A stretch of DNA of 64,000 nt, filler included, from Dugesia japonica (taxonomy: Eukaryota), in NCBI GenBank assembly GCA_001938525.1. It is 6 parts of 6 records of this genome, joined end to end, with 100 filler letters (N's around TTAATTAATTAA, not from the genome) between each part and the next. Parts side by side here need not be neighbours in the genome. Positions count along the whole stretch, not along the records: positions 53,519 to 64,000 come from MQRL01600731.1; 5 more parts are not named here. One strand, given 5' to 3'. Position 1 is the stretch's first letter. The number at the start of each line of letters is the position of its first letter. The notes under the pieces are model-generated. The model was given only the letters and a program-made list of their open reading frames with translations, did not search any database and was not told the DNA's origin. Of this stretch, positions 15,281-64,000 are shown one piece after another. The translations under genes were made by a program, and so were the position numbers.

Positions 15281-15433
15281 TTTTACAATTTCAATTATTG
15301 CGAGAATAATTGTTGGACGTAACCGTTGGTCGTATTTGAGATTGCATTAAAATAAAAGCATNGATCAAAATGTGTTTTTTTGGTTTTTGATAATAGTTCT
15401 ATATTTTGACTTTGAATTCGTTAGGAATTGACT
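15281..15433 (-). mobile_element. Copy of the non-coding HHR element (degenerate core, intact 3' hairpin)
   Basis: Reverse complement aligns end to end with 5140-5294 and 37251-37400. Confidence 0.8.
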
Positions 15434-20760: not shown

Positions 20761-22703
20761 ATTATTCTTATTATTATAGTCATTATCATTATTATTATGG
20801 TCATTATTATTATGTAATTATTATTATTATAATTATTATGAGAATATTGTAAAATACGAGAAAATAAAAATTGGGCGTAGAAGACCCAGATTTTATGTCA
20901 CAAAAGTAAAAGAATTTATATGAGATGAAAGGAAAAGAAGTAGTAGAAGTAAAGAAAAATAAAATACTATATTATAATAATTTATTAAAGGGGTCTCTGC
21001 GACCTAATTTCATTATTATAAATAACGCTAAATAGCGTTTAATATTAATTATTATTATAATTGAATTAGTCTAGTCATCAGTCCTTGTCTATTTGACGAA
21101 AAATAAAACGAAAATCATCAGCAGATTAGCTGAATCCTTACCTGCTAAACAAGGACTTCGCCTCAGGAACAATCAGAGGTAACACGAGGTGACTGCTGAC
21201 GAAAAAGTTCATTCTAAGTAGGTGTGCGAGGAAAGTCGGTCGGAGAGAAAATGACAAGCAGCCGCGAGTTGGAAATTGGTGCTGTCCAATCAGAAGAACT
21301 CAATTACAAAAACAAGCTACGGATTGGTGAGCTAATTTTTCGTCGCAAGTTGGGGTACAAACGAGGAATAAAACTCGTTTGCACTGAAAAAACGGGCAGA
21401 AGTTAAAATCAAATTTGTAAAATTTACTTAAAAATTTACTANNNNNNNNNNNNNNNNNNNNNNNNNNNNNNNNNNNNNNNNNNNTCAAAGCAAAACTTCT
21501 TACGATTATTATTGTGGAGGCAGAAAATCAAATCAAACGTTGTTGCGATTATTATTGGAAAAGCTCAAGCTAGATAATCAAAAGTAAAAATCTTTTATTA
21601 TTTATCAGTAATTAAAATCATTTATGCATGTGACTACCGAGTGCCCTGATNNNNNNNNNNNNNNNNNNNNNNNNNNNNNNNNNNNNNNNNNNNNNNNNNN
21701 GTTTGCACTGAAAAAACGGGCAGAAGTTAAAATCAAATTTGTAAAATTTACTTAAAAATTTACTACAGAGTCAAATTTTCTTACGATTATTATTGCAGAG
21801 GCAGAAAGTCAAAGCAAAACTTCTTACGATTATTATTGTGGAGGCAGAAAATCAAATCAAACGTTGTTGCGATTATTATTGGAAAAGCTCAAGCTAGATA
21901 ATCAAAAGTAAAAATCTTTTATTATTTATCAGTAATTAAAATCATTTATGCATGTGACTACCGAGTGCCCTGATTCGAGATCGTGTTTCCGTTATAATGA
22001 GTCGCTTATGTAAAATTACAGCAGAATGGAAATGAGAAAATCCTGTTAAAATATGCAGCCGAATCGAAATAAAATTTTATGTGAAATTACAGCAGAATAG
22101 AAATGAGAAAATCCTGTGAAAATACGAGCCGAATCGAAATGAGAAGATTATGCAAAATTATGAAGCAGAATTATTAAAAATGGTTTTGGAAGTTCAGTTT
22201 TTTGTTCATACCTGATCAACTAAGTATTTGTTCAGATTATCCTAATTTCTATTATTTATTTGTCAAAAACATTTTTTATTTAATTATAATAATTTCATGG
22301 TGATTTCCACGTTTATTTATTTAAGTAATAGTTCATAAGAGATTTTAACGAATAATGCAATGGTCATCAGGAGTTTTTCTTGAAATATTTGGCCTTATTT
22401 TCATGTTATCATGTTAAATAGTATTGTTAGAATTATAAGTTTAATTTGATGTCATCACGTTTATCCTCATGTAGAGTCTCCTACTCATAGTTTATCTTTT
22501 GAGAACTTCACATTGGTGGGGACCAGAAAAGATGGCCGCGTTTGTGGGTATCTTCTCTGATCCGTACTAAAGAAGTAGTGGAAGAAGAACTGATAGGCCG
22601 TAGGCCGAAGAAGCGTGTCATTAATAAAAATCTGGTTTTATGTGCTTTGAATTAAATTTAATAATATTACTAAAAAAGTCGTTAATTTTGTATTTAATAG
22701 CAA

Positions 22704-23129
22704 ATGACAGCCTATTTCAAACTGCACATCCCATTGGTGCTTACGAACGATGGTGATACCAGGACTTTCTGGATTCCGTGGCGGAATGCCGTGGAGCTAC
22801 TGGACGAACAAAAAGAAGCTCACGATAAAGACATGCAGGAAATCAGGGCCGGCCAACAGGAGCTCGTTAAACGAAATTTGGATTTGAGACAAAAAGTGAA
22901 AGTCGCGAGTGAGGAGAAGGAAAAATTAGAGATTCAGCTGGCCCAGTGAAGGCTGGATTTGCAGGCATCGGCACGCGATATGGCAATGGCCACACAACAG
23001 ATGATGGAGTCCCGAGCGTTGATGGAAAAAGTGGAGGAGAATATATTAAAACAGTTAATGGATAACACTGGGGTCGCTACCGAGGTGCTGGACCCAGTGA
23101 TAATCAAGGTCGAATCTCTGTCTAAATAA
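22704..23129 (+). pseudogene. Accessory coiled-coil ORF 1 in the retrotransposon leader (141 codons, one internal TGA)
   Basis: Frame continues past TGA 22947 as RLDLQASARDMAMATQQMMESRALMEKVEENILKQL...ESLSK*; AATAAA overlaps the stop. Confidence 0.55.
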
Positions 23130-23361
23130 ATGTATTGGTATTATTGAGTTTCAACGTGTTTTAATTTCTCGTTATTTTACTGTGATATGTGGGTCACACT
23201 AGTAGTTGAAAATTTTATATCTGCAGAGGCAGTGTTAAGGTTAAATGATTTCATTTAGGTATTATTTATTAGATTGTTTTTCTTTTGAAGGCAGAATGAA
23301 TTTTAATTTTGCTGGTCACTTTATCATTATTATTTTGTTGATAAATATTGTTTACATAGTA

Positions 23362-23750
23362 ATGAAGTCTATTTCAACTGTATCATATTTGCCATTATAG
23401 TGAACAAATCAAATGACGAAAAGGGGTCAAAACGGGAGATGATAGCGGCACAGCAACGATGGAAAGAGGAGAGGCGCGATTTGTGCAACGAAATCCTGCA
23501 GCTCAAGGGACAGTTGAATCGATCATCCTCGAAATTCGCACAGTTGAAGGAAAAGCAGTTGGCACTTCAGCAGGCCAACCGCCTTATGGCTGATATTGTC
23601 AAGATCTATGCGGATCGGTAGGCCAAATTGTTCCATACTCTACGAACATTGTGGTTAAATTATCGATCTCCTGAGTAATCCACCGAAGCTATTGAGAAGA
23701 CCGTCAATCTGGATGCCTTACTAAAATTTGCAGTGTACATAACCAAATAA
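23362..23750 (+). pseudogene. Accessory coiled-coil ORF 2, probable paralog of ORF 1
   Basis: Start ATGAAGTCTATTTCAACTG resembles ORF 1 ATGACAGCCTATTTCAAACTG. Heptad-like EERRDLCNEILQLKGQL..LKEKQLALQQAN. Two internal stops; ends AAA-TAA with AATAAA. Confidence 0.5.
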
Positions 23751-26695
23751 ATATTAATGAGTATGGATGTAGTATCTTAATTTTCTTGAAATTTTATTTG
23801 TTGAAGTAGAGTTTTAACATTATATTTTAACTGAGCATGTGTGATTATTGCTGTCTGGGTTCACAGAGTTATTGAGTAAGACGCGATACCACAAAGTCGC
23901 GCTGAACCCGTGGAAACGAGGGGCATGTCACAGAGGTGACTTAAATACTTGTGGTTTTTAGGTATACCCTTAGACAGGTAAATAAAGTAGTAATTATCTT
24001 ATTAAAATTATCTTATTTTGAATTTAGATTTAAATGTTGTTGGAGAATTTTATTGTAGTGATTTGGAGAGGGACAATTTCGAGCGTAACCATAGATTTGT
24101 GAAAGCACCCGAGGAAAAGATGTCGTAATGGTGGATGTCATTTTGGAAAATAGGGCCCACCATTAGTAAGCTCGAACTAGAAGCCTGGTCAACTTTGAAG
24201 GGACAGCTGCAATGATCGTCTAATGACTGAAATGATTGAAATTGTTATTGACCTAGTGACAGGAATCTTTGAAGTAGTTATTGAAGTGGAAGATCTTTGA
24301 GCTTCGACGCTTCGAATAAGGAGTACCGATCTCGGAAGTTGGATACTTTGTCTGACTTCCACGCCATGAGAATGGAGCTTAGTCCAGGCGAGATAAACTC
24401 ACGAATTCCAGGGGAATAAACGATGGAGCCGGCAACTAGCATCGCATCTATTAAGCTGACCACTTATGGCGTTCGGTTGCAGTGAGTGCGCCTTGACACT
24501 CACTGCCTACAGCTAACTACCCGTAGCTCTACAGAGTTTTAGATTTGAGGGTGAAACATCCCGGTAGGACAAGGCTGCAAATTGTCCGTGGTATCTTGCG
24601 ATCAGAGGACTCAGTGTTGACAAAATGGTACAATAGTTAGCCTCAAGTGTGGCATCAGTAGTGGGATTTACTTTTGGGTAATTTATTTGGTATTGCGATC
24701 GCGGGTAGCGTCGTAGTTACACATCAGCTGGATCATGGGATTCTGACTGAGAACCTTCATTTTAGCGAGTGGTTAGGCTGTCAACTGACTCAAGCATTGA
24801 GGTATTAAAGTATTATTGTAAATTAAGGATCGAAATTGTCGCCCAGCTGGAGCTGAAAAAATAGACTACCGGCTGCATTAAGAGAGTTTTCAAAGCAAAT
24901 AAACTAGTACGAAAAAGGTTTAAATTTATTTGAATGAAAGATGATAACGGAATTAAATGAGATATATTGAAGCAAATATGGGAGTAGCGAGTTAATAACT
25001 AGTAAATCGTTCCGGATACTTTGTCGGTTAGCCACCGAAAAGAGAACTAAGAAAGACCTTGTCGGAAATGGTAAAATTATCCAAGTGTATAGTTAAATTG
25101 GGAGAAATAATAAAACTATCCGAGTGTATAGTTAAATTTGAAGTAGTAATGAAAACTGTCCGAGTGTATAGTTAAAATAAATTAGTTGAGGAGAATTTTA
25201 TTGATACTTATTATGAGAGGAGAGCTTTGAACTTACAAAATTTCACAGAGAAATTTGCCAGGAACTGGCGCAAGAGTTCCAGTGTTGATAATTGAGGAGT
25301 ACTAATGTGAAGTGATTAAAGGCGAGGCATAGCCAACAAATTAATAATTGAAATAATTTAAAGAAAAAGTGAACCGTGACGAAATTGAGTAAATAGTTCT
25401 ACAATGGGACAATTTAAAGTGGAGATAATTTAATCATTGATTAGCTGTGAAAGTTTATCAAGGGTATAAACTGCTAAGGACAGGCGGAAGTGTTCCTACG
25501 TGAAAATGAGGTTGGGATGAAGCAAATGTAAAAGGATATTAAAAGTTTATCAGGGGTATAAGCTGCCAGGAACAGGCGGAAATGTTTCCATGAGAAAAAT
25601 GAGTTGAAACAAAGGAAGTGTTATTCGATGTTAAAGGTTTTTCCTAAGGATAAACAACCAGGGGCAGGTTAGATTGTCCCAACGGGAGATATGGAGTCAA
25701 AAATAAATTGATCGTCAATTAGTTATAAAGGTTATTGGGAAGATAAATTGCCAGGAACAGGCTGGATTGTTCTATTATGGGAAATGAAATGGAAATAAAT
25801 TGAGTATTAATTAATTGCGAAAATTGTCCAGAAGACAAATTTGCCGAGAGCAGGCGGAAATGTTCCATGAGAAAGGAATAAAATTTATTAATGAATAAAC
25901 GAGTCTTGTGCTCAACGGAGGAATCAATTACAAGGAGACGAAATAAATTAATGGAATTCATTAGAGTAAGGTGTCGAAGGCACATCTGAAAATTTCGAGA
26001 CAAATAAGTATGGGAATATTATAAGTTGTTAAACTATATAAATTATAATGGGAATCACTAATCTGAGTGGAACTGTTTCAGAACAATAGATATTGAAATG
26101 GGTATTTCAGAAGACGTAAACAAATAAAATTGCTGCTTATGTTTAATAAATTATGAGGTAATAATAGTAAAATTACGTAAATACGCTACTAAAGTAATAG
26201 AAATCAAGTATAGTAATGTATCGTAGTGTAGTAATTGGTAATTAGAGGTATCACTTGGTAGATAAAAGTATTTAACAGTAGTCAATTAATGATTGCGATA
26301 ATAATATTTGAATGGGCGCAGAAGCCGTAGGGCCATATTATTTAATTTCCGAAACCAAAACAATCAACATTCTAATATTCCAAAATTCGAGATAAACCAA
26401 TCAATCTGCATATCAACCAAATAATAAATCATACATAATCACGAACCCCGGTACCATTTTAGAGAAAGTTCATAACATAGAATATCATTAGTACTTAAAC
26501 GACACAATCCAGCTAAAATAAAGCGATCGGTCTCCTACAACAGGCCGTCTCGACAATTTGACAAATCTTTATCAATTTCAGCATCCAAATCACCCAGTTT
26601 AATCTCGTCTAACGACGACGCACCAGGAGAATTTGACACCATAACAGATCCAAACCACTCAAGAGCCAATTCGTTAGTAGACCTTGATCTAGAGG

Positions 26696-28215
26696 GTGTA
26701 TACGAATCTAAACCAGTTAGCAATAGTATACCTACAACAAGAGCGTCAAGTAGAATTCGTCAATACTCGGAATCAAGAAAAGGACAACGAGGAGAATTCA
26801 AAATTTTCAGATGATGACAAGAGTATAAGTAGACAGAAATGTAAACTGTGTTCGGAATGGAAAACAGAGTTTAATAGAGATTATTTTAACGTACAACCTG
26901 AGAAATTAAATGATTTTATTGCAGCCTATGGGATACATATACAAGCGTGTCAATGGAGTGACAAGAGAGCAGCGGATCGATTACCTCTATATTTGAAGGA
27001 TTCAGCTAAAATTATTTACTGGGATAAAATTAATAGTCGTAAAGATCCCGTTGATACATGGGAAAAGGCTAAAGAAGTGTTGTTGAAAAATTTCAAGCCA
27101 ATAATGTTGCAAGGACAAGAAATTCAAGAGTTCGTTGGTCGAAGACAACTAAAAGATGAAACCTTTCAGGCATACTCAACAGAATTACGTAAACTCAGCA
27201 AATTGGCGACGAAAGACAAGTTTGATGATCCAAAAGTGCTCGGTAATTTTATTAAAGGACTTAGAAATGCAGAGGTGAAAAAATGGGTAAATCTATCTCA
27301 GCCCACGACGGTGAACATGGCAATAAACGCGGTGATGGTAGCCCATAAAGTGGAAATGAATCAAAAGCAAGCCAGTGTTTTTAAAATTGAAGAGCAAAAA
27401 GAGGAAGAGAAAAGCGAACCGAAAATCGCGGATATTATACCTGCCAGGACTCAATCATTATTTAGAGGACTGTCACTAGGTCAGAATAGGCCCCCACCAC
27501 GACAATCAAATAATAATTCGAGATCAAATGGAGGAAATAGACAAGGAGCGTGGCAGCAATCCCAGGGAAGTACCTTTTATAACTTTGGTAAACTCGGTCA
27601 TTATGCCAGAGATTGCAGATCGGCAATGATATGTAAAAATTGTCAGAAACCAGGACATAAAGCTGAAAATTGCTTTTTCACAAAATCACCAGTGTGTTAT
27701 ACATGCAATAAACCGGGTCATACGAGTAGGAATTGTTTCCAGAATAATCAAAGATCAGGCTATGGGAATTCCAATACAAACTATAATAATAAATTGAGAA
27801 ACAACCAGGCCATCGGGAAAATGATGGACGAAAATGATAAATTAAGGAACCAGATAAAGAATAATTGAAACCAAAATCAACAACAACGGAATCTTATGCA
27901 ACAAGATAGGCAAAGGCAAGATGAAACCGAGTAGCGAGTGTTTGACAAGTTGAAACAAGAGCAAAAATATTTACAATTACAATTGGAGGAACAACAAGTG
28001 GCAAGAGAAAGAATGCAAAAGCGAGAAAATAATCGAGGACAGATAAATATGATGAGAGCACATCCAATGGACGTTGAGCTATGGGCAAAGGTAACAGCAA
28101 AATGAACAATGATAACGAAACAGCTTGAGGATAAAATTACAATGATCCAAACCTTCAAGGCAGTAGTCTACCGAGAAGCATATTGGGCAATGATGAACCA
28201 TGTGTTAAAGTTAAT
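26696..28215 (+). pseudogene. Gypsy-like gag: capsid domain, three CCHC knuckles, then a coiled-coil
   Basis: LPLYLKDSAKIIYW...W..AKE.LL..F, RRQLKDETFQAYSTELRKL, FIKGL; knuckles FYNFGKLGHYARDC (decayed), CKNCQKPGHKAENC, CYTCNKPGHTSRNC. The frame continues through stops as a Q/E-rich helix. Confidence 0.85.
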
Positions 28216-28264
28216 GGAGTCAGGTGAATTAGATGCGTACACATACATATGTATATGAAACCAC

Positions 28265-35949: not shown

Positions 35950-37166
35950 AAGTGCGTAAGATATTTGAGAACATATATTTGATGTTACTTTTGTACATTA
36001 TTTTTTAATGCATTACTTATAAAATTGTTTATAATTTATAAAATCAACAAAAAATAATTTTATTGAAATAATATTAACAGGTTAATGGCAGACATTCAAA
36101 TTTATAAAGAAATAAATGGGCATGCTGTAATTGTGGCTTTACAAGCTGATCCTAGTGATTTAGAAATTGCGGGACATTTTCTTCAGATCTTATATTTATA
36201 ATATTCATGAAGTGTTGGAAAAAAATGAAAAAAAAAATAAATAAATAAATAAAAATCATACAAAACACTCTGACATCGTCAGAAAAGCTGATTTAATCCA
36301 AGAAGTTAAATTGGTGACAATCCAAGAATATCCACGAAATCACTTGCTTAAAATATCAAGATCTCGGAAGGAACAATCAGAAATACTGTCCATGAAAACA
36401 TTGGATATAAGTTTTATGTGTTGAGAAAAGAACAATTTCTAAAAAAAAGAAAATCGGTTAATCAGATCTCAAAGGTTCTTAAACAAAATTTAAAAACTAG
36501 CAGAAAAAGATGCAATTTGGTTTTTCTCGGATGACAAAAGCTTTAACAGGATAAATGGTCGTTTTTTATGTAGAGACTCTAGTGAAGTTCCGAGAGTAAT
36601 GCACAATAAATGTCCTGCAACTGTCATAGTTTTAAGGGTAGTCAGCAATGAAGGGCATGTGAACTTTGCTGTCTATATTGAGGTCCTGCAAAATGTTGTT
36701 AAACCGTGGATAGACTCAGTGCGAAATGGAAGATATCATATTTTTCAACAAGTCTCTACACCATCACACAAAGCTAAATCAACACAGAAATGGATTGCTG
36801 AAAGTGTTTCTGACCACATCACTCCTAAATACCCAGAAATTAATCCAATCGATTATTACATATGGAGCGCTATTGAGAAAGAGGTTTATGAGCATTCTTT
36901 TAACACTTTAGATGCTTTGAAGCCCACCATAGTGAACGTGGAGTCGAATATGAATCAGGCCCATTTAATTAAAGCTTGTAAAAGATTTCGATTTCGTGTA
37001 GAAGCAGTTATTACAGCTTATGGTGACTTATTTGAATAAAACAATTAAGCAGTTAATAAATTTTCATCCTTGTAGAATTTTTCATTAATTAAATTATCAT
37101 GTGTCCTTATATATCAGTTTTCCTATAAACATCATACATGTTCTCAAATACCTTACTCAACCTGTA
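35950..37166 (+). mobile_element. Tc1/mariner element, maT (DD37D)-like, decayed transposase
   Basis: TIR-like GTAAGATATTTGAGAACAT (35956) and ATGTTCTCAAATACCTTACTCAACCTG|TA (37138-37166). WFFSDDK, YIEVLQNVVKPWI, IFQQ.STPSHKAKSTQKW, INPIDYYIWS. Confidence 0.85.
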
Positions 37167-37400: not shown

Positions 37401-40092
37401 ATATAATTTTATATATATATATAATTGGAATGATCCAGGTTAAAAGAATTAGAGATGAGAGATTATTCTCAAATGAAGAAATGAAATTCCTAAATAACGG
37501 CTATCCAAATAAAGTCATATTTAATGAAAATTAATCAAATGAATTCTCAAATGCGATCAATGTTTAAGCACAACAATTATTCTCATAATAATTATAATTG
37601 TAAAATAATAATGGAATTTATGAAAAATCAAAATATTTTGTAAGTCTGGCTTCAGTAAAAATAATTTTTCTCCTAAACCATCTTCGTTGTCAAGTATTCT
37701 TTATGGTAATTTGTTTAGAAAAACCTTGAAAATAAAATACTTGAAAATCACAATCGGAAAAATTAATATTACCTATCTATCTATCTTAACAATTATAAAC
37801 ATAAATAATAATTATTATATTAACATCAAAAAGATTATATAAATGAATGTTACTAAATATTTTTTGAAAAAATTTACAGAAAATTCAAATTAGAAAACAG
37901 AATTTCATCGACACACTATGATTTCCAACCACTGATTTTATAAATATTTTCTTAGTCACATTTGCAATTTCATTTAACAAGAAAATGACTTTTCGGTTGA
38001 CAAATGATGCTCTCATTTTGACAGATGAATCGTAATAATTGCATCACGAAATTTATAGAGAGATTGTAAAGTTAATTAATATTTATGATTTCTTTTATTT
38101 GAAATTAGCCAAAAAAGTCAATCGGGAAACTCGATACAAATATAATTGAAAATAAAGCTGCATATTTTCCATTTATGATTATCATATAATGGTTATTTCC
38201 CCAATATTTTGTAAATTTGTTCAAATTAATAAATCAAAAATACTATTATTTTTGTGATTTCTATTTCACATCAATTAAAATTCATTTCAGCGTAGTATTA
38301 GTTTGTCTGTATGCACTTTTATATTAAATTGATTTTGGGTTGCTATATATCCAGGTATGACTTTAAACACTCGCTCCAAGAGTTTTCTTTTTACTGATGT
38401 CCATGACCATAAGAAAGAACTAATTCTGATTTTATTTGATATTATGCAGATTGATCGACTTTCCAGTACTTTCCGATCAAGTGAATTCCTTGAAAAAATT
38501 AAAAAATAATCTTTATTGAAAATTGTTTCTTTGTTTGAAATAGAAAGGTTATTCACATTACAGTTCAATTGGCAGGTGATAATAGTTTCCTTCCGAAAAA
38601 TTATTTATTTATTGAAGAATTATTGTAATGGTTTCTGATTAAAAAATTTATTTTGTCCAATAAAAAGAAATCGATGGGATATGTGGGGCCCCCAAAATAT
38701 AATAAAATTACGATGGTGTGTAATAGATGAATAATATACCGTGTAAGTGTGCAATTGAATTGAAATAAAATACTAATTACACTGGTGTGCAAATGGAGCA
38801 GAAAAAATTCTAGTTTTGATAAGTAATTGGACATAGATAGATCAATTCAATCGGGTTGCCAAGGGGTTTCTAATCGCGCTCTGTGCTTGTTCCAGATTAA
38901 TATACAGTTAACGCTAGTTTTTATTAGTTTATGTAAATTATGAATTATACTGTAATCGATGAATTTTAGTAACTAATGATAACATAACTTTCATTATATG
39001 AATTATTTTTGCTTAGTAATGAATTTAACTATTGGTTATATTTATAATTAAACAATGATAAGTTAATGGCAATTTGCTAATAATATTGATTAATAGTTAA
39101 CATGGTTAATTAAAATTTTGTAGTAATGAATCATTGTAGTAATGTTTAAATTAGTTTTTCATTAATTGTAATTCATAATGATCTATAATAATGATAATAA
39201 TAACGAGGAAACAATAAAAATACATCTCCTTATTTTTTAAAGTAACCAGTAATAAATAACATCTCGGTAGTAACTTTTGATTTGTTAAAGACGACAATAA
39301 TAAACATAATATTAATAGCGATAATTATAAGAGATAGTACTGATAACAAATGAATGGTTAATGATGGGTAAAAGTGATAATAATTAATGGCCATGACGAT
39401 ACATAATGGGAATAACAATAGGGATAATAAGGCTAATAATGTTAACGTATAAGAAACATAATTGGTATGACTTGATGTCGACATTAGTACGAATCTACAA
39501 TAATAAAAATAATGATAATAATAATAAGGATAGTAAGGAAATATGAAATAAAGGCTAAATTATTCATCCATCTTGCATTCCTCTCGAAGTTTAAAATCAA
39601 CAATAATAGCTGCAACAAGATATTAATATATACATCATACAATACTAGTCACTCTGATCAAAAGGCTTACAAAATTTTATGTCGATCCTAAATGAGTATT
39701 ATTGAAGTGTGAACCAAAAGAATGCAAGCATGCACTCGAATTATGGATTACGAGTCACTGGCTTCATTCTGAAGATCTAAAACGGGACTCTAGATTTAAT
39801 TCTTCACGTGGTTTTACTAAGCCATGACACCCTAGATATAACTTAAATTTTGAACTGTTTAGATGTAACCCCAACAATATCAATTTCTAAATTCTTCCTC
39901 ACATAGACAATACTTTGTATTTCTAGCAAAACATGGGTTTGAATAATTAACTATTGGTTTAAAAGATCGAGTATTTATTAAACATGTTTAGGTTATTTTT
40001 TCATATTTTGTTAGTCTTTTAGTTTATTAAATGGATTAAATAATCCATTTCTCTATTTACTTATAATTTAATTTTTTATTATTCATTAACAC

Positions 40093-40282
40093 AAAAGCTT
40101 CGATCAAAATTTGTTTCTGATAATAATTCTAATTTTCGACTTTGTCTTCGTCAGGAATTGACATTTATCAAAAGTCAATTCCTGGCGAAGACAAAGGTGA
40201 AAATTAGAATTATTATCAAAAATAAAAAAAACAAATTTTTATCGAAGTTTTTATTTTAATGAATTCTGAAAATCGATCAATG
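40093..40282. mobile_element. Fold-back copy of the HHR element
   Basis: Arms ~40093-40162 and ~40174-40250 are inverted; the 3' tail is truncated after GATCAATG. Confidence 0.85.
40125..40159 (-). ncRNA. Ultra-minimal HHR, intact core (35 nt)
   Basis: Minus strand AATTC-CTGACGA-A-GAC(AAA)GTC-GAAA-AT-TA|GAATT with a perfect 5-bp helix I. Confidence 0.8.
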
Positions 40283-48154: not shown

Positions 48155-49835
48155 GTAGGGTTTTTTTTCTGTAAAAAAAATCGAAACCGATTAACCATCA
48201 TAAAGAACTGCGGTTTTCGGTTTTATTTGAAAATATGTAGGAAAAGAAAAGTTTCTGTACGGGAAAAAATAATCATCCACATCTGTAAGGGATTAAATTT
48301 TGTTCACCATTGTCCAGTTTTTCAAAAATATCATGGAACGTTTGAAAACTCGTGAAAATCNAGAATTAACAGATTTGGCTACATGCTTATTAGATCCTTT
48401 AAAATTCCCAACAAAGTCTTCTTTAATATTGGCCGGAAATCTTTTTGAACGGCTTTATCCAAACGACAATTAGGTTGAAGGTTAATGTTCGGCAAATTCA
48501 AAAGAATTATAAGAAGTGGCCAATTCAAATTATTCCCTGCAAGACAAAGTTCAAAAAGCTATTCAGGAAGTATTAAAGAAAAATACTTATAGACAACAAG
48601 TAGCTCTTCAAATTCTATGACCCAGGAGTTCACTACATATAAAAGAACTTCCGAGAGAACAAAAAAAATTAAATATTTTGTTTCAAGGACTCTCTACAAT
48701 TAAAGCTACATCCATTTTTGCCGAAAGAATATTTTCTTTAAGCGCAAACTTTTGTACAAAATTAAGATCTCGATTAAACGACTAACATTTAAATAGTTTA
48801 GTGTTTTTAAATNNNNNNNNNNNNNNNNNNNNNNNNNNNNNNNNNNNNNNNNNNNNNNNNNNAAGGGATTAAATTTTGTTCACCATTGTCCAGTTTTTCA
48901 AAAATATCATGGAACGTTTGAAAACTCGTGAAAATCTAGAATTAACAGATTTGGCTACATGCTTATTAGATCCTTTAAAATTCCCAACAAANTCTTCTTT
49001 AATATTGGCCGGAAATCTTTTTGAACGACTTTATCCAGACGACAATTAGGTTGAAGGTTAATGTTCGGCAAATTCAAAAGAATTATAAGAAGTGACCAAT
49101 TCAAATTATTCCCTGCAAGACAAAGTTCAAAAAGCTATTCACGAAGTATTAAAGAAAATTACTTATAGATAACAAGTCGCTCTTCAAATTCTATGACACA
49201 GGAGTTCACTACATATAAAAGAACTTCCGAGAGAACAAAAAAAATTAAATATTTTGTTTCAAGCACTCTCTACAATTAAAGCTACATCCATTTTTGCCGA
49301 AAGAATATTTTCTCTAAGCGCAAACTTTTGTACAAAATTAAGATCTCGATTAAACGACTAACATTTAAATAGTTTAGTGTTTTTAAATTATTTTTTAAAT
49401 TTAAAATAAACCAAGTTTTGTTTCCAATTTTTTTTAGTTTTATAATTAAAAAAAACATAAATATTTATATTCATAGATATAATATTTTAGCTTGTACTTA
49501 GTTGTACCTTTATTTAAACTCTAATATATTTATGTATCAATATGTATTCTGTATTTTTAACTATTTACCATATGAATTATACAATCGAATGACGTTTACA
49601 TCGTTCATTAAAGGAAATCATAGCCAAGAAACTAGATTGGAATATTTATATATGAAGTAAATAATTTCCAATGTTTAGAAATATTAAAATCAACTAAACT
49701 GCTCCAATTATTTTAAAACAAATATATATTCAAAATTTCTAGTTCCATCCCATTCAAATATCAGAGACTATTACCAAAAGTTCTTAAAAACCGAAAACCT
49801 CGGTTTTGAAAAAGTGCGGATTGCCAGAAATCCTA
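48155..49835 (+). mobile_element. Deleted hAT element with C-terminal dimerisation-domain remnant, duplicated across a gap
   Basis: TAGGG.. left end and ..TCCTA right end with AACCG repeats. ALSTIKATSIFAERIFSLSANFCTKLRSRLND at ~48690 and ~49265. Confidence 0.75.
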
Positions 49836-53418: not shown

Positions 53419-53518
53419 NNNNNNNNNNNNNNNNNNNNNNNNNNNNNNNNNNNNNNNNNNNNTTAATTAATTAANNNNNNNNNNNNNNNNNNNNNNNNNN
53501 NNNNNNNNNNNNNNNNNN

Positions 53519-56500
53519 GAATTTTGAAATAAGAGTAAAAAAGCTTGTTCACGATATATTTGAAAGCAAAAGATCACCAGAGGAAATATCAAAAGTTTTT
53601 ATTCTGAATGGTTTAAGAAGTGGGAAATTTAAAGAATCCTTTGCCCTCCAACGAGAATTAAATGACGATAAACGTCGAGGATTGGCTGGAAACCTTCATA
53701 AATTTGTAGCGAAAAGTATTGAAAATGTAGTCAACGAAAGCTATGCAAGTGCAGTTAAGAGATCAGCTTTTGAAACAGAACTTAATAAAATGGGAAATGA
53801 TTACAGAGGACAATATTTTCATCACAAAGAATATACTCCAAAATATTCTGGAATTTCTAGAAAACCGACAAAAGATTCAAGGATTGGTAATAATATGCAA
53901 CAATTAAAAGATATAAATGAATAACAAAAAAGAAAATTTCCAAAACATTCTCTGAAATATGTAGCAACAAAAATTTAAAATAGATGTCATACTAAAGCAC
54001 CTCCAGAGTAGAATTCCTACAGCATGGTGCTTGTTTTTGCTGTTGAGAAACAAACCATAGAAGAATAAACTGTCCTTTCAAAAATAGGTAGTTAATATAC
54101 AGTAAAAAAGGCCATGCTTTCAAAAATTGTGCATTGTTACAAAGACAGCACATTAACCAAAGAATATTATGCATAGCAGAACAAGAAAAAGAATCCTTAA
54201 ATGAATGTGACTCCTTAATTGATTTTGAACATGATGCAATAAATATCTTAGAAAATACTGAAAAAATGACCAGCAACTCACTGTGTTCATCTCGTCAGTG
54301 AGGTTGCATTAAAGAATTTTAAAGAGAAAAATCGAGATATTGATAGGAGACCTTATGTTAAACTGATGTATCAAAAACGTGATGGTAGAAATTGGAGTAG
54401 TGTAAATTGTAATGGAATTAGTGTAGAGATGTTATGGGATTCTGGAGCATCTGTCTCAGTGAAGAGTGAGGAAATTTGGAAGTAAATAGGTTCACCTAAA
54501 ATTCAATTTTCAAATGAAATGCTTGCTGGAGTATTTTTTGAGGAAAAAAATGCATAGAAAAGCTAGAATTAAATTATTTTGGAATAAAAAGCATATTGAG
54601 AAAGAAATAACTATTGTTAAAGACATTTGTCCAAATTTTATTAGTGGTATTGATATAATGGACGCGTTTGGAATGGGAATAAAAGAGATCAATTTCATAG
54701 ATTCAAAAGATTTTATATGCAAAAATAAAAAAATTTGATAATAAAAAGATTAATGCACTCAAGCTAAATGCCAACAATAGAATAATTGAATTACTTGATA
54801 AATATGACCACATATTTATGAATTCAAAATTTAACGTAGGGTTAACAAATATTACAATACATAAAGTAGAAACTAAAGGAGAACCCGTATCGATAAATCC
54901 AAGAAGACAACCAATGCACTTAGAAGGCAAAATAGAATAATTAATACAAAATCTATTATCAGCAAATGTTATAAAACCTTGTCGAAGTACATAAGTGATT
55001 GTTCCAAAAAAAATTGGTTCTCTAAGAATGTGCCTTGATTTTAGGAAATTGAATTCGGTAACTGAAAAATATTCATTTCCTTTTCCAGATATAAATATAT
55101 AATGGAACATTATTGGATATATTATTAGATGCATTAAATAGCTCTATGTTTTTCTCATCAATTGATCTAATACAGGTATATTATCAAATTGAATTAACTG
55201 AGAAGTCAAAATTAAAAACAGCTTTCATCACAAAAATGGGATAATTTTGTTTAAATCGCATGCCGTTCGGATTATGCACTGCTCCTGCAACATTTCAAGA
55301 ATTAATGCATAAAATTTCCCACAAGATGTTATTTACTGGAGTGCTCGTTTATCTTGATGACATTTTAATTTTTATCAGACACAAGAAATTTATGATAAAC
55401 ATTTACAAAATGTGTTGGAATTAATTGAACAATCTGATCTAAAAATTAATCCTGAAAAATGTATATTTAATGTATCAAAACTCATATTTCTTGGTCATAC
55501 AATCAATTCTAAAGGTGTTGAAACAAATGATGATATTATTAATAAAGTAAAAGAAGCTGTTATTCCAAAATGTGCAACCCAAATTTGAACGTTCTTGAGA
55601 TTGACAAATTATTATCGTAAATTTATTAAAGATTACGCAAAAATTGCCAGTCAATTATATGCAGCAAAAACTGGATCGAAAGAAGTTGTAGAGTGAACTG
55701 AAGAATGTGACAGCAGTTTTAAACTACTAAAAAAAAATTATGATCTTCTCCAAATCTTGGCATTTCCGAATCATCAAAGTAAAATAATATTAGATACAGA
55801 CGCTAGTTTCAATGCAATTTGTGCTGTTTTGGGTCAATTGTCGAGAGATGGTGTGGAAAATGTTATTGCTTATGCATCTCGTAATTTGAATGATCATGAA
55901 AAGGGTTATTTTGTAATCAGAAAAGCATTATTGACACTACACGAATTTAGGATTCATTTCAAACATTATCTCTATGGAAAAAGGTTCATCGCCCGAACTG
56001 ATCGTAAGGCATTAGTGTGTGTGTGAGAAAAGCAAGTAAACCAATTAGTTCATGGTTCTAGACGTGCATTACAAACCTAGCAGAATTTGATTTTGATCTT
56101 CAATTTTGTAAAAGCATTGATCATGGTAATGCTGATGGATTATCAAGAATAGGAGAAATTTTATCTGCCCAATGTTTGTCGATTCATCACGATGCAAAAG
56201 GTAAAAAATCTAGAGTTAGAAGAATTAATATTGTAGAAAGCTCAAGTTATGATAAAGAAATTATAATAAAAATTCAAAGTAATGATCAAATCATCAAAGA
56301 GATAATTGAATATATTTAAGATCAAAGCTTCCAAGTTAATAAAAATTTAAATCAAAGTAAATACTTCAGAGATATTGATAAATTCGTCATGGAAGAAGAT
56401 AAATTGCTGTTTTTTGAAAAAATTTAGAAGAGGATTGTTTTTTGCAAGTAAATGAGACGTTAATTTAATAAATTACATTCATGAAGAATAATGTCACTTG

Positions 56501-57300
56501 CGAACGAGAAAATTAACTGAATATATTCAAACAATTTATTTTTGACTTGATATGCTCAGAACAATTGAATATGAGTTTAAAAATACTTACTTTGCAATCA
56601 AAGTAAAACATATACAAGCAAAACCAAAGAATTTTTATTACCTATAACCGAATTTGGAGCACTAAAACAGATTGTCATTGATATAGCTTATTTTGATGAA
56701 TCAAAGTTAAAGAAGAAGTATGTTTTAGTCATTATAGATTGATACAGCTAACTTGTTAGCCTGTCAGCCATGGCAAAACAAGACAAAAAATCTGTAGTTT
56801 AATCAATAAAAGAGAATTGGATATATAGATTGGGCAAGCCCAAATATATACTGACAGATATAGGCAAGATATTCGAAGGAAAATCGATGAAAGGAATGCA
56901 ACTGGAGCATCACTGTTTGAAATAATTTATGGAAGAAAAATTATGATTCATGAACCAATACTAAATAATAATACAAGCATTAGAGAAGGTAGAGAATTAG
57001 TAGATAAAAATATGAAAAATTCGGCTCTGAAATCAAATGAATATGAATCAGATAAAGGAATACGCCGGAATTTTGCTGAAGAGGAAGAAGTTCTAGTAAA
57101 GGTAGAACCTTAGAACTTGAAGAAAAATGGATACAGAAATGAATGTTCTATTGAAATATTAAAATTTCTAAGCCCACATCAAAATCTTTTAAATTATTCT
57201 GGAATCCCTAAACCACGAAGGATCGAGTGGCTAAAAAAACAGATGTTCAAAAATATTAGGAAGGAGGTATGTTAGATATAATATTTAAACATATTTGTTT
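53519..57300 (+). mobile_element. Decayed Gypsy/Ty3 LTR retrotransposon (gag-PR-RT-RH-IN, PPT, start of 3' LTR)
   Basis: CFCC*ETNHRRINC knuckle (54032), LWDSGASVSV (54432), RMCLDFRKLN (55025), [42 protein letters not shown], integrase remnants; AGGAAGGAGG-TA-TGTTAG at 57258-57275. Confidence 0.92.
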
Positions 57301-57849
57301 AAATATTATTGATTTATTATTATTTTAATGAACTTTGAAAATGTCTAATTTTGAATTACAAAATCTAACTATAATTATTAACCAATGAAAATTAATTTTA
57401 ATCAGATTAATTTAAATTGTGTTTTAATTTCAAAGTTTGTAATCAAATTTAACACAAAATGTCAGAAATTCTGGCACACTCAACTATCACATTACCTTTC
57501 CATCATCTACCGAAATCTATCAACTACCAACAAACCTATTAAGGTTAAAAAATCAACGCGCGATAACTCATACGACTGTGTCAATGCGCCACTACCCTTT
57601 GTAAACCAAACCACCCATACCACTTCATAAGTCCTTTAGACAATGTATAGATAGTATTTTATTTCAAACACACCCATACCATAAAACCTACAAAAAAATT
57701 AAAATCAAGATCTCTACACCTTCCTCAAGTCTAGTTTTACTCTTACACACAAACCACCCCCACATGACTTACTTGAAACTGATCACCTAAACTTTCCAAA
57801 CACCCACAAATTTTAAAAATTAAATTTACACACACACCTCCAGGATAAA

Positions 57850-60260
57850 ATTTTCAATCTAGATAAAAAAAATGATCCGATTAAAATTATTTTAATCCAA
57901 AAAATTTTAGAAAAAAACTTTCACAAAAAATACTAGCACAAAAATTCTAGCACAATCGTAATCTATTATCAAACAAACATTTCAGTTCCAGTATTCACGG
58001 TACCAGGCAATTCGGTAACATGGAAACATAATTTAATAGGCTATTTAACATGATTAAATCTTTAAAAATTCAAATCTGAAAAAGTCGCAAAAGTTATTAT
58101 TTATTATTCGGTAATATGGAAATATTTGATGTAACAAGTTTATTTACTAATGTTCCATAAAGAGAAAATTGATTTGTGTTGTGAAATATGGAGTGAGTTT
58201 TATCCTAAAAAATTTTTAATGATAAAGCCTTTCGAGACCTTTTAACTTTTGTAACATTGAATGTTCAATTTTTTATTAATGATGAATGATATAGACAAGT
58301 TGATGGCGTGGCCATGTCTAAATGAGAGAGTTAGATTAATGATTATTATTCTGTTAAACCTTTAGTTTACAATTAATTAATTGAGATAAAAAATAATTTT
58401 GAGAGTTAATTTAAAATTAAAATTCATAATTAAAATGAACTAATAAAATTTCGATAAAATCTGAAGAATTATGTAACATGGATCTGTTGTGTTGATTCTA
58501 CCAAGAAGCCATCATTTTTCTGAAGAAGACTTTTGTCGAAAATTTGTATTTTTATACAAATATACTTTATTTTTGATCAAAGTCTTTTCTTTATTTTGAT
58601 GAAATCTTTGGTTTTTTCTTGTTTTTGAAAATCTCTCCAAGTACATAGCTTTTTTCGAGTATATGACTAGCTTGCATCCAAATATAGGCTTTACGGTTGG
58701 AGATTCAACTATTCCGTTTATTAATATAATACTTTTTGAAAGAAAGAATAACTTCTTGGAAACAGAAATATATAGAAAGAATACTGATACCGGTTTGTTT
58801 ACAAATCCTACCAATTTTTGTGTCAAAAAATTTAAAGTAATATGATTAAAGGATTTCATAAAAATAAATAAAACCTCGATCAAAATAAAATAAATTTTTA
58901 AAAAAATTCTAATTTTCGACAAAAGTCTTCTTTAAAATTTATTTCCATTTGCAAAGATCAAAACGATGTAAATCTTCTAAATTATTAATTTTCATTAGTC
59001 ACTACTTATACAAATTCTTTATAGTTTATCAAAATTTTTTTGGTTTATAAATTTTAATTTTAAATTAACTCAAATTAACTCTTAAACTTGTTTAATTAAA
59101 TCAAAAAATCTTGTAAATGTTTAATTATTAATAATTCTTCAACTAATAATAAAATATTTAAAAGATTTTTTGATTTAATTAAAAAAGTTTAAGAGTTAAT
59201 TTGAGTTAATTTAAAATTAAAAATAAAATTTATAAACCAATAAAATTGTGATAAAATAGAAACCATTTTGTAACAAAGATCTATTGTCGTTTGGAATATA
59301 TCAAGAAGTCATCATTTTCCTGAAGAAGACTATTGTCGAGAATTGAAATTTCAATAAAAATACATTTTATTTTGATCGAAGCTTTTTCTTTATTTTAATG
59401 AAATCTCAAATGCGATCAATGGTTAATTTCCCCACAATTATTCTCGCAATTATATAAATGCGTAAAGGACTAATTCATCGTTCTTGGGACCTCTCTTCTA
59501 CTTTAATCAATACAAACAAGAATCTGAATAAATTAATTGATTTTCTTTATAAAAATGGGTATTCTAAATTTTATATTAGTATTTAAACTTTGAATAAACT
59601 AAATTGTGATTTCTCTTGTGCTGACGTGTCTGTGATTGTGGTTAAATTGTTTTATCATTACCTTATTCTTGAGGCTTTAAAAACTTTAAAATTCTATTAA
59701 AAATGGTCTTAAGGATATTTTAAATATAGAAGTTGTATTTCAATCTCACAAAGTTATAAATATGTTCCATAATAAGCCTATAACCTCTTTAGGATTGTGT
59801 TCTGATCTGATCTATCAATTTAAACGTAATGGGTGTAATGCTACATACATTGGAGAGACTTCCCATCATCTCTGTACTATATTTCAAGAGCATAGTTGAA
59901 ATAATTGAAATAGTAATATTGTTGAGCATCGAAGAGTATGTATAAAATCAATAGGATTTTCTGATTTTAAGATCTTGTGCACTAGATTTAATAATCAACG
60001 GGATACAGTGATGTGTGAAGCTTTGTTGTTAAGAGCATTTAATCCTAAAATTAATGTTCAGTTGATGGATTCATTAAAATGAATGGATTCTTAAAATTAT
60101 TTTATTAATTATGTATTAGATTGCATAATTGACGTTATATAATCATTGAAATTTTAAACGATAGTGTATTTAATGATTTGCCTAATGATGACGGTTTTTC
60201 GTCGAAAAAAGATTTTATTAAATAGCTTTCTTTTATTTTTATAAAAAAGCTGCCAATGTT
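57850..60260 (+). mobile_element. Decayed Penelope-like element (RT + GIY-YIG + HHR tail) with nested HHR elements
   Basis: FDVTSLFTNVP (58125), YRQVDGVAM, LHPNIGFT...ETEIYRKNTDTGL, DLIYQFKRNGCNATYIGET (59804), CEALLLRAFNPKINVQ; degenerate HHR TTGC-CTaATGA-T-GACG..CGTC-GAAA at 60178-60207. Confidence 0.88.
58400..59452. mobile_element. Long versions of the HHR element: one direct copy (~58400-58606) and one fold-back (~58853-59452)
   Basis: Cores at 58520 (+), ~58908-58932 (-) and 59320 (+). ~58853-59125 is inverted against ~59155-59405; hairpin tail at 59435. Confidence 0.8.
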
Positions 60261-60769
60261 TTATGAATTTTTAAATATGAAAATCTACAAGAGATTTGTT
60301 ATTTATTTATAATTGTATAATACAAAAATATTTAATCTATCTTGTATTCAAAGCCGTGGGATATAAGAAAAAGCGACATTAAGCCCTCAAATTTATAATA
60401 ATAAAACAAAATTTATTTTATCATCATTTAAACGAATTAATTTTTCCCCTACAACTCCATCTTGGCAATAAGATTTATTTCTTTGATTAAATATAAATTA
60501 GCTGTCTTTTAATTTTTTACTGAAAAGGTTTACATATGGATCTCAATACCGGTAAAGTGCTAATTACACCTTAAATGTTTTACCGGTAATTCGGTAATTG
60601 GAAAATCAGGATTTCAAGTTTTGTATTTAATAGATTTTCTATTGGGAACTAATTGTGACATAAACATAACATCTAGCTTCTTATTAGTTATCGATAATTT
60701 ACGGAAACATCAGAAATTAGATGGAATAAAAGTATACTAGTATACAGATTTATAATTCTGCACTGCGGC

Positions 60770-60910
60770 TAGGGTTTGCAAACCGGTTAAAACCGGTTTT
60801 TAAAAACCGGGTTTTCAATGAAAAACTAAAAACTGAAAATATAACCTGAAAATATAACTAATCTGAAAAATAACCTGGTAATTTTTTAAACAGCATTTAA
60901 AAAAACGGAT
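60770..60910 (+). mobile_element. hAT-like left end
   Basis: TAGGGTTTGCAAACCGGTTAAAACCGGTTTT with AACCGG repeats. Confidence 0.5.
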
Positions 60911-60999
60911 TAGCATAAATTTTACACAAGAAGACAAACTACTAATTCTCAATTTCATAATTTTTATTGGAAATTCTAATGTAATAAATCAGAAATAGT

Positions 61000-63900
61000 A
61001 TTTTTCTGTAAAATAAACAAAAATTTTGAATAAGATCTGTAAATTGTCAGCTGATCAGTTTAGAACCACTAGGAAGATTTATATAGAATGGTAACGATGA
61101 ACACAAAGATATGATCATTTATCTAGGAAGAACGGCATAGAACCGCCAAAGAGACTCGTAAGGAGTCAACCACATGAATAGCATAGAACTATCGGAAAAC
61201 ACTTGCTGCACCGAAATTGTTAGAGAAAACATAGATAAATAGTTTTCACACATAAGTATCCACGATCTTTACATAGATCTTTAGAAGAACTACTTGAGAC
61301 GAAGAATTTATTGGCCCCAGAACAGGTCCTCCTCGGACGCTGAATATGGCCATTCGTTGGATGTTATTGAATTGGGGCTATGGGTGGCTGGGTAACTTGG
61401 TCATCTAACTTCTGCATTGAGTATTTATCAAAAAACTGACTTGGGAGGTTACTGATCGACTGTTTGTTTTGTAGCTATAGAAAGTCTGTTCTACTTTGGT
61501 TAAATTAATCTGTCGTGGAGGAATCACCACTCGAATTGGTGTTTCCTTCAAAAAAGCATTTTCATCGTGTAATTTCTTCACGGTTTCTCAAGGTTTTGAA
61601 TATCGTTATCATACAACTTCCTCTTGGATTTCCATCACTGACTTTCTGCTGTTAGACTAACATTTTTTGCTAGAAGATGTTTAACCATATTGTCCAAGTT
61701 CTGGATGTCCATTTGATATCGTTCTTTTTCAAATCTCTTTAAATGGGTTTCTTTTATTAGTCGTTCATTCTCTTTCGGAAATTGATTCCATTTTCTTAAT
61801 TAAAATACACATAAATCATAATATTGAATATTTAATTCATAAAACGTTAGGAACTACTGATTATAAAGATTACTGATTAAGCAAATTTTAATTGAGACCG
61901 GTATTTACAAATTGTTTAGTAGTATTTCCTTTGTTACTTTTACTGTACTGTATGTTTATTTACAATTTACCGTGTATACCACTCATAGATACACCACATG
62001 CCACTCCTCAATTGGCCATTTACACACTACACATCGTTTGAACTCATTTCTCTAATGACATTTCTGACAAATTGCTACATGCCCACAAGGTAAATTCAAA
62101 ACTGAAACTGCTTCCACTTTGCATTCTTTACATCTCATCATTTGCTCCGTCTTTGCCTTGTATATTAATGACACTGTCTCCTCAAACTCTTTCATCTTCG
62201 TGATTAGCTGCTAAACTTCATTGAAAAACTGAACATTTCCCAATCGCCGCTTGCTGATATTCCAATAATATTCATTCCACACCTCTTTCTCATTCTTATT
62301 TGCTTGTTGCATCGTCAATACTCCGACTANCCTTAAAATAGNATTTTAATAACCAAATATTTCCTCAAAATATGACACATTATCATNNTTCATCCTCTGA
62401 TTAATTTNTTGTAATTCTGCTATTGATTTCTGTTCTAAACTTGACTTCTCCATCATTATTGTTTCCACAACACAGCTCNACAATCTTNNGAAATCTTCAG
62501 ACATTCTATATACAAATTGGAATTATTCTTATTACGCACTGATTAAATAAATATAATTTTTGTTCTACTTCTACCATACTTTTACTGTTTTTGATTTTGA
62601 AATACAAGTTTTTTGTTTTTTACATAGTAATACAATTACTATTAAGCATAAACTTTTACAATAGTCTACATTTTGGCATCTACTATCATAGATTACTCTC
62701 TTCTCCATACCACACCCTCTCACTCGTCTCGATAGTGTTCAGGATGGCGGATATGCTCGGTAATCAATTAATTTGAAATAAGATAAGCTCTGCATTATAT
62801 GCTTTTAACTCATTCACTTGATGTCTCAGATCCTCTACTATTTTGTTAGTTTCATTCAAGGTAAAAATTCTGATTTTCGGTAATGTGTCATCACTGGTTC
62901 TCCACTATTTTATTCAATCAGTGTATCTGCATCACATAAAAGTTTTGATTCTCTACCAGGGTTGCATTCAATTGCCGGGTTTGTTGCAATTGTCCGTTTA
63001 GTACATCCGAATTTCTCATTACGCTCCTATAGTGTTGGTCCCACAAATTCTCTATTGTAAAATAAGGATTTAAAGGTTGATTAAGCATCTAGGTATATGT
63101 TCGTGCTGGTTACTCCGTAATTGCTCTGTCAGTGTCGTCAAGATCCGCATTTACTGTTAGATGTTCATTAATTGTCATTTGTTTTTGTTCCATTTTACTA
63201 AATAAATGCTACTATAAACACTATCGTGATCCATTTCAAAATCAAATTTATTCAATCACTCAATACTTTAATTTACTTAATCAACTATGCTCTACTTTAC
63301 ATTTCGAGCTACTCAAAAACTAAATTGTGTATCCTGCTGTTACATTTCACGTAATTTATTTACAACTTTACTTTCACCACTACTCAATAATTCCACCACA
63401 GCTCAATTCCTCCCTCAGGAACTCCTGATCACACAAACTCTCTTGGTGGATGCAAATATTTTGCCGTAAAATCTCTTAACTCCGGTTCTAATCGCAGTCT
63501 CGGATATCGCCCTCGTTTCGCTTAACAAATTAACATTGTTATAATCGTCATCATGATTATCGCAATGACACTTGCTACTCCACCGCTGAGTCCTGCTGAC
63601 CAATTCTCTTCATTTTTCATTTTTCTTTGCTCCGTGATTGCCTTGAACTTTAACTTGGCTTTACCCGAAAATGTCCTTCGTGAACTGGTCCTTACCAATT
63701 TTCGCATGAATTGATCAATAAAATCCTCTTACTTTTTTTAAATACATTTGATCGTATCTTCACTGGTTTAATTCGTATTGTTATTTTCTCATATTCCACT
63801 GTCGTTGTGCTTTCCGCTTCTTGTTGGACTTTATGTTTATAATTCTCCAACTTTTCCACCACTTTTTCTAGTGTCGGTATTAGCCTAATTGACTTTTTGA

Positions 63901-64000
63901 ATTGTTCCACACCAGGGTCTCCGTGTTCGTCGTTTTCTTTTATAAATTGTACTGTTTTCGCTATAATTTTTGTGACTTTGCTTTGTATTCAGTATCGTTC
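61000..64000 (-). mobile_element. Probable 3' part of a giant Gypsy-like retrotransposon
   Basis: Decayed coding run with KVVEKLENYKHKV (resembles the Gypsy integrase C-terminal GPY/F region), hydrophobic segments, the RING finger and a downstream coiled-coil ORF. No RT/IN core or LTR inside the window. Confidence 0.45.
61983..62285 (-). pseudogene. C-terminal IAP-type C3HC4 RING finger of a long decayed ORF
   Basis: 62132->61983: CKECKVEAVSVLNLPCGHVAICQKCH*RNEFKRCVVCKWPIEEWHVVYL*. All eight ligands present; one TAG at 62054-62052. Confidence 0.85.

Follow-up and report, generated by a model that had tools for sequence, protein, structure and literature searches.

Burro elements of planarians, which are giant Gypsy elements, occur in 'thousands of copies' and bear cargo with an apoptosis/ubiquitin theme, namely BIR, BCL2-like, MATH/TRAF and Ubi/SUMO-like domains (Jurka 2007; Grohme 2018; both as reviewed in the accessible text of PMC6431247). 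The B-IAP of Burro1, a protein with a RING and a BIR, is reported to protect planarian stem cells (Lee et al., Dev Cell 2026, as cited in the available part of PMC13465017), and in planarians both long terminal repeat (LTR) elements and Polintons are PIWI-interacting RNA targets (PMC8532177, available part). We studied the minus strand of positions 61000–64000 of a 64,000-nucleotide (nt) stretch of Dugesia japonica DNA (GCA_001938525.1), referred to in its full length as the window. The window consists of six joined parts that are not necessarily neighbours in the genome; positions 53,519–64,000 are from MQRL01600731.1. The region contains an array of short open reading frames (ORFs), which ends near 61400 and of which about 2.7 kb is in view before the window itself ends at 64000, and one of these, ORF C, encodes an IAP-type RING without a BIR. 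It is our main reading, with a probability of about 0.5, that ORF C is a separate, broken ORF in an abundant repeat with a likely Burro-type carrier, and that its intact product would tune IAP/TRAF signalling. Anti-apoptotic cargo of Burro elements, mentioned in a preliminary description of the window, does have a published precedent, as cited above.

Like Burro1/GYPSM1, the locus combines an apparently very abundant element, accessory ORFs, an IAP-type RING as cargo and a theme of apoptosis and ubiquitin. Unlike Burro1 B-IAP, as that protein is described, ORF C has a helical bundle instead of a BIR, is a separate short ORF, and has relatives in Mavericks (Polintons). With cIAP1/BIRC2, cIAP2/BIRC3, XIAP, BIRC7 and IDOL/MYLIP it shares a PF13920 RING at the extreme C-terminus after a long helix, and its family retains the tail aromatic and the dimer-side hydrophobic residue of cellular IAP RINGs. 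In contrast to cellular IAPs, it has neither BIR nor CARD, and the loop-1 hydrophobic residue, the loop-2 proline and the linchpin arginine are mostly replaced in the family. Maverick/Polinton genes of three metagenome loci (L002–L004) match both domains of ORF C (E 2.4e-11, with 25% identity across 153 columns) and so belong to its family; the gene abuts an A32 ATPase there, near TRAF, phosphatase or TBP genes, whereas ORF C is flanked by ORFs unrelated to these. Viral IAP and RING-only proteins (baculovirus, iridovirus and giant viruses; BFVD) likewise represent a captured IAP-type RING, but in BFVD the query reached a TM-score of at most 0.43, the root-mean-square deviation (rmsd) was high beyond the RING, and the helical domain was unmatched.

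An IAP-type RING in a short ORF

The C3HC4 RING of ORF C is complete at 62132–61986 (minus strand), with 8/8 zinc ligands and with the LPCGH core and VVYL terminus given in the preliminary description; a stop codon follows directly (61985–61983). It matched PF13920 with 35.6 bits (E 7.8e-9), above the Pfam cut-off of 27 bits. The solved RINGs nearest to the family profile were those of cIAP2 (1e-14), cIAP1 (8e-14) and XIAP (8e-12), then MYLIP (8e-9), and in this profile the tail of the ORF C RING aligned to the cIAP2/cIAP1 tail. The absence of a BIR motif, also noted before, was borne out: Pfam did not detect PF00653 among the ORFs of the window or among 21 proteins of the family, and the three minus frames of 61000–64000 were free of any ligand pattern resembling a BIR. 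PF00653 was present in six of the ten non-family matches scanned. The RING is a genuine IAP-type C3HC4 RING without a BIR. Since a BIR is lacking, the protein is not expected to bind or inhibit caspases directly as IAPs do, and any anti-apoptotic effect would thus be indirect.

ORF C opens with an ATG at 62504 on the minus strand. The RING had been credited with one stop, and it is indeed interrupted once, between ligands 6 and 7 (62054–62052); the whole ORF has two more in-frame stops (62348–62346 and 62213–62211), and seven of its codons contain an N. Three stops in 173 codons are fewer than the 8.4% of codons expected for non-coding sequence of the same composition (P = 2e-4). Upstream, from 63728 down to the ATG of ORF C, 30 of the 408 codons of frame −3 are stops (7.4%), and the open stretches of the region fall in three different frames; the single decayed coding frame of about 2 kb proposed earlier does not agree with these counts. 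The stop densities, together with the ATG and a length within the range of its relatives (106–218 amino acids), indicate that ORF C is very probably a stand-alone accessory gene. The copy in the window is dead.

AlphaFold modelled ORF C with a pLDDT of 88.5 and a pTM of 0.72; in the model, a helical bundle is followed by a long helix that leads into the RING. The model superposed on the cIAP2 RING with an rmsd of 1.3 over 56 columns, and the best solved matches in the fold search were cIAP2 and IDOL. The helical N-terminal domain was found family-wide (Table 1). We take its G-Y loop to resemble the MGF loop of the IAP UBA domain; five tests did not confirm UBA identity. With the family profile, the helical part aligned to the segment of cIAP1 that bears the MGF loop, but scored 3.0 bits only, and a helical-only profile scored 3.8 bits on one IAP, compared to 4.5 for shuffles. 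No UBA match was obtained for the helical-only profile in PDB, or for the helical domain among Atlas or VIA rows.

The repeat, its protein family and its carrier

Abundance was assessed by aligning contigs of four DNA runs, out of seven from one organism that share 6–10% of the words, to 62490–64000 at an 80% likeness threshold; the RING coding sequence (62132–61986) lies outside this span. No RNA run was listed among those sharing words. The runs gave 960, 939, 1,464 and 858 matching contigs, mostly less than 95% alike. The summed contig depth, which does not equal copy number, was 810–74,597 over 62490–63713, 305–871 in the bin after 63713, and 20–89 over 63765–64000, while single listed contig pieces had a depth of 3–27. 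In 4/4 runs, the depth over 62490–63713 was higher than that of single contigs by a factor of two to three orders of magnitude. The bin holding the start of ORF C had a summed depth of 6,606–16,521, and contigs extended into the ORF. As far as the ORF C start, the array thus appears to be a repeat of very high copy number, in keeping with the earlier proposal that a mobile element carries the IAP-type RING. At the other end, one piece fitted 63472–63723 and then continued for 264 letters that do not resemble the window. Pieces with about 85% likeness to 63674–64000 diverged from the window below 63674, and those with about 93% likeness reached as far as about 63660. The two sequences are likely joined near 63670–63730, although divergence below 80% could mimic such a junction.

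ORF C, with X at its breaks, was searched against 1.84 billion representative proteins, which yielded 54 matches at E ≤ 0.001, seven of them at ≤ 1e-10. The family rows were chosen from these by eye: 19 relatives of 106–218 amino acids had the same helical N-terminal part and a RING at or near the C-terminus, one more (P0040) had this unit in a larger predicted protein, and the remaining 34 matches were BIR-IAPs, other RING proteins or chance. The best identity of the small relatives to ORF C was 25–37%. No functional name was attached to the 18 small relatives and the predicted protein P0040 that were looked up. With the family profile made without the window row, ORF C was the sole match in the window (117 bits; independent E-value, iE, 2.8e-37). 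In a 31-row tree, all 23 family rows were separated from eight IAP rows (L005 and L007 classed as IAPs by eye) by a branch with support 97/91, 14 other outgroup rows being omitted; a 45-row tree including one out-of-frame row (L001_ctx) gave the family a support of 37/87 only. The position of the window protein inside the family was not settled by the 31-row tree.

The genomic company of the relatives is of two kinds. In P0040, the family unit stands ahead of Retrotrans_gag within one predicted protein. A metagenome scan gave 16 loci from 56 pattern matches, four of which matched both domains and 12 the RING only (six of the 12 were inspected). Among the four, L001 (1.3 kb) had no neighbour genes, and in L004 and the near-identical pair L002 and L003 the RING gene lay directly upstream of an A32-type ATPase. 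Further downstream, L002 and L004 contained an rve integrase together with two long ORFs that had no library match and that we take, from the Polinton gene order, to be minor and major capsid. Upstream lay host-like signalling cargo: in L002, genes for a dual-specificity phosphatase and for a RING-zf-MATH protein of TRAF-like type, and in L004 a gene for TBP. The family is, then, Maverick cargo in two elements and stands beside a Gypsy gag in one predicted protein. In L002 (178–6794) and L004 (171–7166), the 5′ part of the integrase gene is also covered, in a different frame, by a long ORF. The MATH/TRAF cargo type of L002 is also known as Burro cargo. In one further protein, P0019, two IAP-type RINGs are found together with a domain of apolipoprotein L.

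Word-indexed protein searches, which are weak for this purpose, found no longer relatives among 41 and 6,126 candidates, and a near-length search returned only three members already found among 1,047 candidates. Viral contigs scanned with the RING pattern, the Maverick capsid-like ORF, the ATPase, P0040 and the window gag gave no relative. In a mostly open literature, Repbase not included, we found no description of the small RING family, nor of Mavericks with an IAP-type RING as cargo; the accessible texts of PMC11131425 and bioRxiv 10.64898/2026.10.13.758929 describe neither.

On balance we lean towards an LTR carrier, a Burro-like giant Gypsy, rather than a Maverick, from the abundance, the GC skew, the layout of a second element, P0040 and the lack of an ATPase after the RING. 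The abundance of the array fits a Burro-type element. The sense-strand GC skew is 0.31 for the array, compared to 0.15–0.21 for the Gypsy parts of the window and 0.04–0.11 for Maverick sequence. The second element, at about 21700–28250 (plus strand), has the same layout of ORFs and spacers ahead of a gag with three CCHC. ORF D, which follows the RING gene, is neither an A32 ATPase nor a gag, and no Maverick core gene matched 61300–64000, part of a unit that is cut short, when the ORFs of L002–L004 (ATPase, integrase and presumed capsids) were used as queries, the RING gene being the only match. Several observations weigh against an LTR carrier. No gag, pol or LTR is linked to the array within the visible region; the window contains Maverick fragments of a related family; and the relatives with long context (L002, L003 and L004, representing two distinct elements) are Mavericks only. 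The RING of P0040 is truncated, and this protein, which may be a gene-caller join, is no closer to the window protein in the tree than the Maverick members are. Maverick RING-coding sequence is also G-skewed (0.13–0.23), which makes the skew weak evidence, and the limits given above for the depth and the span of the abundance alignment count here as well.

The same stand-alone gene could instead be carried by a Maverick/Polinton, with the four ORFs as an accessory block that has its own promoters and poly(A) signals; we regard this as unlikely, though appreciable. It would agree with the A32-type ATPase directly downstream in three of the four family loci and the integrase that follows in two, with the related Maverick fragments at 8.6–11.1 kb of the window, and with words weakly shared by two of the three spacer pairs (10/200 and 8/200 shuffles, which is marginal; 115/200 for the third pair). 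It fits less well with the identity of ORF D, with an abundance and strand skew nearer to those of the Gypsy parts of the window, with the count of AATAAA (6 against 5.6 expected), and with the distance of the Maverick fragments, more than 40 kb along the stretch. The preliminary description had placed the RING at the C-terminus of a Gypsy pol polyprotein extended beyond the integrase, as a membrane-bound E3. Burro polyproteins do hold many cargo domains, and accessory ORFs may be polyprotein subdomains (accessible text of PMC6431247). The two hydrophobic segments indeed share frame −3 with the RING (63584–63525 and 63233–63201), but the second, WITIVFIVAFI, lies in an AT-rich spacer among stops, with one stop eight codons ahead, two right behind and 8 stops in 63 codons. 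The stops counted above separate the transmembrane (TM) segment from the RING ORF; that segment, the only one, belongs to a different ORF, some 1 kb upstream, and a segment of TM strength is absent from all 19 small relatives (maximum 1.87, compared to 2.57 for ORF A on the 19-residue Kyte-Doolittle scale). The supposed integrase-C-terminus-like start is an open frame (63988–63692, minus strand; 1 stop in 99 codons) with no integrase match in Pfam, PHROGs or PDB, and the stretch 63765–64000 is two to three orders of magnitude rarer than the rest of the region. The searches for longer relatives point the same way, weakly. A polyprotein origin is accordingly very unlikely. Least probable of all is that ORF C is a decayed single-copy pseudogene of a host IAP or RING gene, outside any mobile element. 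The array has no linked transposition gene in the window and the abundance alignment did not cover the RING, as such an origin would have it, but the depth at the ORF C start, with contigs extending into the ORF, and the grouping of the protein with mobile-element proteins, not with host IAPs, speak against it.

The second element is likely the 5′ part of a Burro-type giant Gypsy, with decayed short ORFs and T-rich spacers, and ends before pol. It has tandem repeats at 22006–22160, 25065–25176 and 25450–25640, and its gag (26693–27865; Retrotrans_gag, three CCHC) is followed by a coiled-coil-like run, as described for Burro. ORF B did not align with the first ORF of this element. The Maverick/Polinton fragments of the window are at 8613–11449 and 18844–20051 (plus strand); they match the presumed capsid ORFs of L004/L002 and include a DNA_pol_B_2 piece below cut-off and, at 11120–11449, an ORF that appeared cysteine protease-like by eye, with no Pfam match.

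Dimer side and E2 side of the RING

In RINGs of this type, residues of loop 1 and loop 2 contact the ubiquitin-conjugating enzyme (E2), and the residue four before the third ligand faces the dimer. We compared these positions in 20 complete family RINGs, including that of the window (P0013 and P0040 were excluded as incomplete), with those in 29 control RINGs, one control having been dropped. The dimer-side hydrophobic residue, the tail aromatic and a tail of 11–12 residues were present in 20/20 family RINGs. On the E2 side, I/V/L in loop 1 occurred in 3/20 family RINGs and 22/29 controls, the loop-2 proline in 1/20 and 16/29, and the linchpin arginine in 1/20 and 12/29. The Fisher P values for these contrasts are 3e-5, 2e-4 and 0.007, and are overstated because the family rows are related. 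A dimer side that is kept and an E2 side that is mostly altered suggest that the RING was selected to dimerise more than to activate ubiquitin-charged E2 (E2~Ub), which in turn would make it a partner-dependent ligase or a decoy for host IAPs. In cIAP1, Phe616 of the tail acts in trans within the dimer and Arg606 is the linchpin (accessible text of PMC6349121). RING heterodimers in which one partner is a scaffold, such as MDM2-MDM4 and RNF2-BMI1 (named in the available part of PMC12326332), offer a model for a RING with a retained dimer face and a lost E2 face, but as an analogy only.

In the mechanism that we propose, intact copies would make a BIR-less protein with a helical bundle and a C-terminal RING; this protein would pair through its RING tail with itself or with a host IAP, and the pairing would tune IAP/TRAF ubiquitin signalling in the host, so that the element would benefit by way of host-cell survival or signalling. 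By homology to cIAP RINGs, the family RING probably dimerises. That the element would gain from survival or signalling of the host cell, as by analogy with Burro1 B-IAP, has an even chance of being right, and the chance that the protein acts on host IAPs as a partner-dependent or decoy ligase, not as a normal autonomous E3, falls just short of that. Besides the relatedness of the rows, two points count against the proposal: Arg or Lys occupies the linchpin in 9/20 family members, and XIAP has Tyr there and is yet an active E3 (accessible text of PMC12326332). A considerable possibility, though below even odds, is that the protein, in either carrier, is a homodimeric E3 of the ordinary, autonomous type. 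Its helical domain would then recruit a host substrate for ubiquitination, such as a protein of defence or signalling, and there would be no particular connection with IAPs or apoptosis. In favour of this, the family retains every zinc ligand as well as the tail aromatic, which props the donor ubiquitin (PMC6349121, available part), non-Arg linchpins can function (PMC12326332, available part), the IDOL/MYLIP RING equals that of cIAP in the fold search, and a protein lacking a BIR is not expected to bind caspases directly as IAPs do. Against an ordinary E3 stands the alteration of three E2-side positions together, family-wide, with an invariant dimer side. A wider version of the partner-dependent or decoy proposal, in which IAP-derived RING decoys, with the dimer face retained but the BIR and the E2 face shed, would move between Mavericks and giant Gypsy elements of aquatic invertebrates as part of a shared TRAF/phosphatase/RING toolkit and capture host IAP RINGs as heterodimers, thereby rewiring apoptosis or TRAF signalling, is improbable at present.

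The rest of the window, and significance

The array is made of four short ORFs (A, B, C and D) parted by AT-rich spacers (Table 1).

Table 1. Features of the region 61000–64000 of the window
Feature	Positions	Strand	Remarks
Low-copy open frame (integrase-like in the preliminary description)	63730..64000	-	likely other sequence, with the join near 63670-63730
ORF A, decayed short ORF, one TM/hydrophobic segment, then basic residues	63381..63620	-	segment 63584-63525
AT-rich spacer A/B, 190 nt	63194..63383	-	contains WITIVFIVAFI reading, likely non-coding
ORF B, decayed, coiled-coil-like by eye, frame change, short internal repeat	62690..63193	-	
AT-rich spacer B/C, 189 nt	62505..62693	-	
ORF C, helical bundle, long helix and C-terminal IAP-type RING	61983..62504	-	173 codons, pseudogene copy
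Helical N-terminal domain, family-wide	62190..62456	-	helical-only profile without window row: 30.8 bits, iE 1.1e-10
C3HC4 RING and C-terminal tail	61983..62132	-	aromatic at cIAP1 Phe616 position; Lys at linchpin
AT-rich spacer C/D, 191 nt	61792..61982	-	AATAAA at 61960
ORF D, decayed, coiled-coil-like by eye, more than one frame, downstream of RING gene	61405..61791	-	

ORFs A, B and D are each weakly open (P 0.01–0.09, with limits set after looking), the frame of ORF A being open from 63728. Neither these nor the low-copy ORF gave a significant match in Pfam or PHROGs. Spacers B/C and C/D have an exact 12-mer in common, which is marginal (8/200 shuffles) and was picked after the fact; a 9-mer of the spacers was at chance level (55/100 shuffles). 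The AATAAA at 61960 sits in a context resembling that after ORF A (63360). Inverted pairs in 60500–64000 occurred at chance level only. At 60771–61330 a different sequence, with a short palindromic terminal-like motif at its start (60789–60814) and no Pfam match, apparently truncates ORF D.

Elsewhere in the window, 53475–57275 (plus strand) is a decayed ordinary Gypsy, with reverse transcriptase (RT) and RNase H by Pfam and a gag-like ORF and an integrase-like end by eye. Fragments of non-LTR RT (RVT_1), a DDE_3 fragment and a Penelope-like end were seen at 16244–17270 (minus strand), 36494–37036 (plus) and 59690–60082 (plus). The DDE_3 fragment is Tc1/mariner-like and scores below cut-off; the Penelope-like GIY-YIG end, recognised by eye without a Pfam match, resembles window 1609–2399. 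Long imperfect palindromes of 72–87% identity lie at 1559–2368, 58852–59405, 5047–5234, 7474–7760 and 40073–40272, and several of these stem from one dispersed repeat family. Near-identical duplications beside N gaps, at 48287–49388 (526 nt at 97.7%) and 9330–11170 (252 nt at 100%), are possibly assembly artefacts.

Apoptosis cargo in Burro elements is already in print, and what the window contains is a dead remnant of a repeat that is common. What the locus suggests is that the survival-cargo theme of Burro-type elements is wider, with a second, BIR-less family of IAP-type RINGs in Mavericks and probably in giant LTR elements. If the family is shared in this way, cargo would pass between DNA and RNA giant elements, and its members would be small natural test cases for a RING turning from ligase into regulator.

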